DNA of 54,587 nt from a virus: the UHGV virus genome UHGV-0036483. The stretch is one strand, 5' to 3'. How positions within the stretch are numbered: the first letter of the stretch is position 1; every line of letters begins with the position of its first letter. Below are positions 5,829-5,986 of this stretch, one piece after another. The position numbers and the translations under genes were made by a program. Below the pieces are notes generated by a model that worked only from the letters and a program-made list of their open reading frames with translations, did no database searches and was not told the origin of the DNA.

Positions 5829-5850
5829 AGTTTACAAAATGGCGTCATTG

Positions 5851-5866
5851 TGTGATGCGGATCACA
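5851..5866. promoter_or_regulatory. perfect palindrome TGTGATGCGGATCACA (CRP-consensus-like TGTGA-N6-TCACA)
   Basis: Read directly in the intergenic region upstream of ninF. Confidence 0.35.
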
Positions 5867-5986
5867 TAATGGCGCTTTTCAGCTTGTTATGGCGTATCCA
5901 TTTTGTATACTTCAAGCAAACAAATGCTCTTTAAAAATCCGGCAGCGCTGAAATGCGTAGAAATCACCTGAAAAGGAGAGAGCATT

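Follow-up and report, generated by a model that had tools for sequence, protein, structure and literature searches.

The N system of phage lambda comprises a boxA followed by a boxB with a purine-rich loop, the arginine-rich protein N, and the nin terminators tR2-tR4 that precede Q. Antitermination has also been described in the mEpimmI group of Nus-dependent, non-lambdoid coliphages (Negrete-Mendez et al. 2025, PMC11893012), where Gp17 of phage mEp021 acts on nutR1, nutR2, and nutL. According to the Fig. 7 legend of that paper, nutR2 lies downstream of the cytosine methyltransferase gene, and a terminator, t4, is given as predicted, not demonstrated; for nutR2-dependent antitermination of mEp021 in vivo, the paper cites Valencia-Toxqui et al. 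(2023). Here, we analyze the corresponding gap in the virus genome UHGV-0036483 (54,587 nt, hereafter the window in its entirety), that is, the 158 bp at positions 5829-5986 of the plus strand that run from the stop of a methyltransferase open reading frame (ORF) at 5828 to the ninF ATG at 5987. The gap holds the t4 hairpin, a promoter-like element, and nutR2, and on the strength of its sequence we lean towards reading it as the junction of two early-right transcription blocks, at which stimulation by the cAMP receptor protein (CRP) is possible.

The t4/nutR2 gap of an mEp021-like phage

The records nearest to the region around the gap are those of mEp554, mEp010, and MagusPhagus (~94%), followed by mEp515, mEp044, mEp021, and mEp013 (~88%). 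Among phage records, the gap region matches only mEp021-type phages, together with 35 E. coli prophages, and a sensitive blastn search retrieved no homologues beyond the mEpimmI group. The window also encodes a CI-like repressor and a Q-like protein; it is an mEp021-like (mEpimmI) temperate coliphage. The ORF boundaries bear out the 158-bp extent first assigned to the gap. The last gene of the upstream block (5046-5828, plus strand) is DNA cytosine methyltransferase-like (phrog_757 DNA methyltransferase, E 5.5e-87) and orthologous to mEp021_33, 'putative DNA cytosine methyltransferase', a GenBank tag offset by one from the numbering in PMC11893012. At the place matching the downstream end, the mEp021 annotation shows an AGGAG ribosome-binding site and a 'putative NinF protein'. 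Scanning 4500-7500 against Rfam with a permissive E-value yielded nothing relevant. Conservation was scored in an alignment of 37 distinct gap homologues (seven isolates plus IMG/VR contigs) retrieved with two anchor patterns, to which the counts below refer unless otherwise indicated. The elements of the gap, and the terminator that follows it, are:

5830-5842, plus strand: left copy of a dispersed 13-mer, GTTTACAAAATGG, forming an inverted repeat with 5898-5910
5842-5875, plus strand: 15-bp RNA hairpin, the predicted terminator t4/TERM_4, with arms 5842-5856 and 5861-5875 and loop 5857-5860 (GCGG)
5851-5866, no strand assigned: CRP-consensus palindrome TGTGATGCGGATCACA, TGTGAT-GCGG-ATCACA, at the hairpin apex, matching the CRP core at 10/10
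5876-5879, plus strand: short U-run (UUUU) directly 3' of the hairpin
5884-5911, plus strand: sigma-70 promoter-like element TTGTTA-16 nt-TATACT, scan score 9/12, predicted start near 5918
5925-5934, plus strand: nutR2 boxA TGCTCTTTAA, rrn-type, with the conserved extension AAATCCGG at 5935-5942
5945-5958, plus strand: nutR2 boxB hairpin GCGC-UGAAAU-GCGU, possibly extended to 5943-5960
5973-5978, plus strand: Shine-Dalgarno sequence AAGGAG ahead of the ninF start codon at 5987-5989 (ninF, 5987-6163)
6203-6234, plus strand: strong intrinsic terminator GACGCCG...CGGCGU plus U8, inside the 5' end of ninG, ~40 nt from its start

The plus-strand hairpin, which includes G.U pairs at 5845.5872 and 5850.5867, folds with -24.2 kcal/mol (z -5.8; none of 200 shuffles was as stable), versus only -12.9 kcal/mol for the minus-strand RNA, and record MH706966 annotates the exactly matching 34-nt stretch as 'terminator TERM_4; score=79'. 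The palindrome contributes the top six stem pairs and the loop. Thirteen of the 15 pairs are intact in 36 or all 37 of the homologues. Wobble pairs become Watson-Crick pairs through T5845C and G5850A, and a Watson-Crick pair becomes a wobble pair through A5861G and, in prophage E21845 (not one of the 37), through C5863T. A pair is lost through each of four single changes. C5851, which is common, leaves a C.A mismatch. Two predictors are at odds over this same hairpin, which a TransTermHP-style method calls in mEp021 (L001, 4119-4152) and ARNold omits in five sister phages (L003-L007). A long-range RNA helix between 5830-5842 and 5898-5910, present in the minimum-energy fold, was rejected, as no compensatory changes were found and three transversions break its pairs; the two 13-mer copies are therefore treated as a DNA motif.

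The boxA of nutR2 is the sole exact copy of TGCTCTTTAA in the window, is invariant in the homologues, and fits the boxA element CGCTCTTTA as well as its rrn form TGCTCTTTAACAA. The boxA 17-mer GCTCTTTAAAAATCCGG recurs in a fixed context (...GAGATATT-GCTCTTTAAAAATCCGG-AACAAGCTGAAAATTGAAAC...) on Enterobacterales contigs, many of them short, from Buttiauxella, Cedecea, Dryocola, and Mangrovibacter, and in one Salmonella genome. We take this context to be the rrn 16S-23S spacer, and the identity of the 17-mer to it marks the nutR2 boxA as one of the rrn type. Scanning the genome collection with the 17-mer returned such presumed spacers and chance matches, and no new phage homologues. The boxB stem covaries. 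Its pair 5945-5958 is G.U in 33 homologues, A-U in four, and C-G in prophages E21845 and RM9245, and the pair 5943-5960 of the possible extension is C-G in 30, U-A in three, and U.G in two, the step from C-G to U-A being compensatory.

The elements related to nutR2 and to its promoter-like neighbor elsewhere in the window are:

51964 to 51937, minus strand: pL, TTGACC-16(...CCATTCTG)-TAAACT, with CCATTCTG abutting the -10 hexamer
51859 to 51850, minus strand: nutL boxA AGCTCTTTAA, downstream of pL
51839 to 51826, minus strand: nutL boxB, UCGCU-GCGA-AGCGA
52797-52825: pR, upstream of nutR1
53175-53465, plus strand: Gp17, N-like antiterminator, 96.9% identical to mEp021_17, with an arginine-rich motif (R17, R19, R20, R21, R24)

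Aligned with each other, nutR2 and nutL have 32 of 49 positions in common, by which measure nutL (51826-51859) is a paralogue of nutR2. The conserved arginines of Gp17 agree with the description in PMC11893012. Two boxA-like sites upstream of gp17 also align with nutR2. The first (52861-52909) reads TGCACTTTAAAAATCAGG and is followed by no convincing hairpin; at the second (53076-53124), an rrn-like TTCTTTAACAATC precedes the hairpin GCCGC-UGGAAGU-GCGGC (-10.1 kcal/mol). With a single nutR1 named in the literature and two boxA-like sites seen, the nut-like sites may number four, not three.

Between the hairpin and nutR2, all 37 homologues have TTGTT and TATACT unchanged, and positions 5879-5883 and 5889-5893 are highly variable. 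Invariant hexamers around a variable spacer look like the footprint expected of a promoter, and we infer promoter activity with a start near 5918. The right copy of the 13-mer, CCATTTTGTATAC (5898-5910), occupies the spacer and the -10 hexamer of this element, and pL is built in the same way, with an identical -35/16/-10 design and 13-mer sequence at its -10. The initial annotation had described the gap as a transcription-control region, which the hairpin, the promoter-like element, and nutR2 support. Its proposal of a regulated internal promoter for the nin/Q segment fits the conserved TTGTTA-16-TATACT downstream of the palindrome, but it had overlooked both the TERM_4/t4 hairpin and nutR2.

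The terminator within ninG folds with -17.2 kcal/mol and is also called by our terminator scan. Its 3' part (6217-6236) is 100% conserved in 39 homologues, and ARNold terminators are annotated at this site in mEp554, mEp010, mEp515, mEp044, and mEp013. It is the likely target of nutR2-dependent readthrough.

We propose that transcripts arriving from pR would stop or be trimmed at the 5842-5875 hairpin, or pass it if Gp17-modified. Some 10 bp past the hairpin, the promoter-like element would start RNA near 5918, and Gp17 and the host Nus factors would assemble at nutR2, seven bases after this predicted start. Beyond the ninG terminator, rusA and Q would then be reached only by Gp17-modified polymerase. 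Lysogens have no Gp17; transcripts started near 5918 would there end after ninF, so that a promoter before nutR2 would be harmless. Each nut site lies behind a promoter or promoter-like element (pL then nutL, pR then nutR1, the 5884-5911 element then nutR2), and the proposed mechanism would explain the need for a third nut site. The palindrome would have a dual nature, as the top of a hairpin on RNA and as a near-ideal CRP site on DNA; the position of this site is that of the CRP site in lac P1, and the promoter may thus be stimulated by cAMP-CRP.

Readings of the palindrome and the hairpin

The palindrome was first reported as a perfect TGTGA-N6-TCACA inverted repeat, and this holds for 5851-5866 of the window, where the CRP core reaches 12/12 when T9/A14 are counted. 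It does not hold for most relatives. The right half, TCACA, is kept in 37/37 homologues, but only 11/37 have TGTGA as the left half; the other 26/37 have CGTGA and score 9/10. The central four bases are hypervariable, with at least 10 variants. Across the window, TGTGA-N6-TCACA with up to one mismatch occurs at eight sites versus 1.95 expected, a number reached by none of 100 shuffles, and the extended form TGTGAT-N4-ATCACA at two (5851 and 10897) versus 0.00 expected.

The three ATGGCG direct repeats noted earlier are likewise present, starting at 5839, 5869, and 5889 and preceded by A, A, and T, respectively. ATGGCG is frequent, with 59 copies in the window, against which the three within 56 nt amount to a local cluster. 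However, copies 1 and 2 lie in the two hairpin arms as parts of the near-repeat AATGGCG(Y)CATT, and copy 3, in the variable promoter-spacer segment, is found in just 2/37 homologues.

Several observations speak against the junction reading. The hairpin tail, UUUUCAGC, has four U in 8 nt (two to six U in homologues), as befits a poor terminator, and in three lineages it has become UAUU or CAUU, with a longer stem and part of the U-tract lost. The hairpin was not called by a simple terminator scan of the window, and the ARNold annotation omits it in mEp554, mEp010, mEp515, mEp044, and mEp013. The promoter-like element matches the consensus at only 9/12, and six such matches occur in the 2-kb region versus 2.7 expected. 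The block 5817-6400 is highly conserved throughout, so that less can be concluded from the invariant hexamers and nutR2 than might at first seem. Finally, template switching in quasi-palindromes can yield 'perfecting' changes without selection. For polymerase devoid of Gp17, the hairpin would at best act as a weak terminator or a 3'-end hairpin, and what is maintained appears to be the palindrome/hairpin, not efficient termination.

The gap might hold a hairpin only: the palindrome would be the apex of t4, its likeness to a CRP site coincidental, and, with no internal promoter, nutR2 would serve readthrough transcripts from pR. A stable hairpin biased to the plus strand that coincides with TERM_4, top-stem changes that preserve the RNA pairs as G.U (among them C5863T, at the expense of the CRP core), CGTGA in most homologues, a modest promoter score, and a conserved block that reaches far beyond the gap are all in keeping with this explanation. 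Yet it leaves aside a second 12/12 TGTGAT-N4-ATCACA, at 10897, that lies outside any long hairpin and recurs in differing gene contexts, as well as the 17-bp spacing to TTGTTW that both palindromes share and that matches lac. The conservation pattern, which resembles a -35/-10 footprint, and a U-tract that is weak and, in some lineages, eroded also run counter to it. We regard it as somewhat unlikely.

The class I CRP-dependent promoter of the initial annotation, in which cAMP-CRP bound at 5851-5866 would activate TTGTTA-16-TATACT and make nin/Q track host carbon status, is in our view doubtful. In its favor are the full match of the core, its 17-bp spacing to the -35 hexamer, which lac P1 shares (the lac sequence compared was 100% identical to that of E. 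coli C600/J53), and the weakness of this hexamer, typical of activator-dependent promoters. CRP-like cores are also enriched in the window and, under fixed criteria, associated with promoter-like elements at class I spacing, in 3 of 16 site orientations versus a 2.5% background (P ~0.007, with spacing windows chosen post hoc). A one-mismatch site lies 18 bp upstream of the pL -35 hexamer. Against CRP stand the absence of the first T in 26/37 homologues and poor flanks, which lower the match to the full 22-bp consensus to 14/22, and the TTACA that C5863T creates in prophage E21845, where the RNA pair is kept and the CRP core damaged. With a 16-bp -35/-10 spacer, the palindrome center falls at about -59.5 from the predicted start, versus -61.5. 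CRP needs neither the lower stem nor the AATGGCG(Y)CATT repeats, both of which are conserved, and the -10 hexamers at the 10897 cassette and the 29298 site (see below) lack T at position 6, so that neither is counted as a promoter. PMC11893012, which deals with this phage group, mentions neither CRP nor a promoter between t4 and nutR2.

From the known specificity of CRP, its binding to the window palindrome in vitro is very likely; that it has a physiological role at the gap is considerably less so, and we hold this to be improbable. CRP control would add a moderate, new hypothesis to a known element. A broader version, to which we give still less weight, is that cAMP-CRP would directly gate mEpimmI transcription through lac-spaced palindromes before the nutR2-coupled element, before pL, and in the mobile cassette at 10897; carbon status would then set how much Gp17-loaded polymerase reaches Q, and the modules would be exchangeable cassettes at mosaic boundaries.

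Alternatively, a phage or another host DNA-binding protein might read either the 13-mer, perhaps as an operator-like sequence for the Rep021 repressor, or the array of three palindromes AATGGCG(Y)CATT / TGTGAT-N4-ATCACA / AATGGCGC(Y)WTT, the centers of which are 15 bp apart. One lineage has both flanking copies as the perfect palindrome AATGGCGCCATT, the 13-mer overlaps the -10 of pL and of the gap element and abuts the pR -35, and PMC11893012 leaves the repressor operators undefined. However, one long hairpin explains every feature of the array equally, the 13-mer is not a dyad, and a Pfam scan of ten mid-sized phage proteins, a part of the proteome, revealed no CRP/FNR-like protein. Sites like AATGGCGCCATT are not enriched elsewhere (seven versus 4.5 expected), for which reason this sequence was discarded as a dispersed protein site, and the spaced pattern AAATGGC...GCCATTT had no matches. 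We give this explanation little credence.

A small protein gene (ATG at 5839 to 5934, 31 aa), for which an ORF exists and which PHANOTATE annotates as a hypothetical protein in mEp554, mEp010, and MagusPhagus, is highly improbable and was rejected: it has no upstream Shine-Dalgarno sequence or other ribosome-binding site, stops and a frameshift break the ORF in relatives (37 aa in 22 homologues, 17 aa in nine including mEp021, 35 aa in four, and 31 aa in two), and its variable positions are non-synonymous.

Related cassettes and dispersed motifs

Two further features of the window share motifs with the gap:

10893-10965: second palindrome cassette, AAATGTGATCTGTATCACA at 18/22 to the 22-bp CRP consensus, then a 19-bp hairpin
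2315, 5830, 5898, 10915, 18799, 26233, 29272, 30806, 47589, 51938, and 52783: copies of the 13-mer, mostly intergenic and next to promoter-like hexamers or in inverted pairs

The palindrome of the 10893-10965 cassette (10897-10912) scores 12/12, and its 11-base half AAATGTGATCT is identical to the consensus. Palindrome and hairpin (GTATACGAAATGGCAT...ATGCCATTTTGTTATAT) together fold with -25.7 kcal/mol (z -5.0). In relatives, this palindrome is 17 bp from a TTGTTW hexamer, and the intervening 17 bp cannot be aligned with those of the gap. The cassette is found in IMG/VR relatives between different genes, with a differing hairpin interior (GGCATTG..CAGTGCC), and its place in the window is a mosaic breakpoint when compared with the sequenced isolates. 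A counterpart in mEp021 was sought and rejected, as the corresponding gap differs in sequence and the mEp021 t5 terminator is unrelated. Another CRP-like core, TGAGAAATTCATCACA, with one mismatch, lies on the minus strand (29242-29313), 27 bp upstream of TTCACA-17-TATATA, which faces a small minus-strand gene (28772-29026) inserted among tail genes; the TATATA -10, without T at position 6, makes this a weak promoter call.

The initial annotation had related CCATTTTGTATAC to motifs in other intergenic regions, and rightly: the 13-mer GTWTACAAAATGG, its reverse complement, has 11 copies with up to one mismatch in the window versus 0.18 expected. Its copies adjoin the pR -35 (52783), cover the pL -10 (51938), and flank the gap hairpin on both sides, and inverted pairs are formed at 10915/10944 and 26204/26233. 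This family may serve as an A-rich UP-like element or a terminator arm, as an operator half-site, or as a linker for recombination.

Members of the 13-mer family also lie immediately 5' of three successive genes of the left operon (minus strand): at 47589-47601, 48726-48738, and 49466-49478, a CCATTTTGTAAAC-like sequence abuts their Shine-Dalgarno sequences (CGGAGG, TGGAGG, and CGGAGA) and could be a shared translation-initiation or processing module. Just upstream of a 1220-aa gene that starts at 38441, ATTAACAAAATGGAGTCATTG (38418-38437) matches with its last 17 bases positions 5834-5850 (ACAAAATGGCGTCATTG) at 16/17, which may be another sign of short regulatory modules common to intergenic regions. 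The stretch from pL to the repressor gene contains the palindrome CTTGCA-TCCT-TGCAAG and more copies of CTTGCA/TGCAAG (51900-51915, 51933-51938, and 51989-51994), which are candidate operators for a Rep021-type repressor. About four copies of the 23-bp repeat GGTTGCTCTCTGCCACTACCCCC occur at 51084-51171, inside a 328-aa minus-strand ORF (50464-51450) that we take as a putative replication initiator; the repeats look like origin iterons within the gene, as in lambda O.

Comparison with known systems

In isolates from human faeces, mEpimmI phages reportedly match lambdoid phages in frequency, and nutR2 may let transcripts started before ninF pass the fully conserved ninG terminator toward Q. Should the palindrome bind CRP, host carbon status would be linked to the lysis-promoting arm of the phages, a connection long suspected for lambda and, to our knowledge, never mapped to a site; otherwise, the region is simply an orthologue of an element already published.

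The locus is an orthologue of the t4/nutR2 region already published for mEp021, so that its core is known. In both, the gap is the one that separates the cytosine methyltransferase gene from ninF, the hairpin is TERM_4, the boxA/boxB block is invariant, and the gp17 gene is the same. The locus differs in the left half of the palindrome, TGTGA in the window versus CGTGA in mEp021, and in the U-run, an intact UUUU versus UAUU. For nutR2 and the predicted t4 of mEp021, the sources are Valencia-Toxqui et al. (2023, Arch Virol 168:92), on mEp021 antitermination, and PMC11893012. What may be new is the conserved promoter-like element between t4 and nutR2, the reading of t4 as a poor terminator in which the palindrome rather than the U-tract is maintained, and the lac-like placement of CRP-consensus palindromes at the gap and two other places.

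As in the lambda N system, boxA precedes a boxB with a loop rich in purines, the phage encodes an N-like, arginine-rich protein, and there are terminators to be read through before Q. Unlike lambda, mEpimmI phages have a third nut site, inside the nin region, the boxA of which is the rrn-type TGCTCTTTAA in place of lambda CGCTCTTA; it lies only ~7 nt past a putative start, and its boxB exposes the loop UGAAAU on a 4-bp stem. With the rrn boxA (leader and 16S-23S spacer, the NusB-NusE site), nutR2 shares GCTCTTTAAAAATCCGG, identical to the recurring contig sequence, but nutR2 is in a phage and has, after boxA, a boxB that serves a phage protein, whereas in rrn the hairpin precedes boxA.

The promoter-early stem-loop (PeSL) cassettes of T4-type phages are modules of a stem-loop plus a promoter. 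The window resembles them in its stem-loop and promoter-like modules at gene-block boundaries and in the recurrence of 10893-10965 in different gene contexts; the phage group and the sequences are unrelated, however, the mEpimmI copies number a handful, and a role in recombination is putative. Lastly, the gap shares with lac P1 a 16-bp TGTGA-N6-TCAC(A/T) core, the 17-bp distance, and a weak -35 hexamer, and departs from it in a -35/-10 spacer of 16 bp, versus 18 bp in lac, and in a predicted CRP site that is embedded in a 15-bp hairpin.

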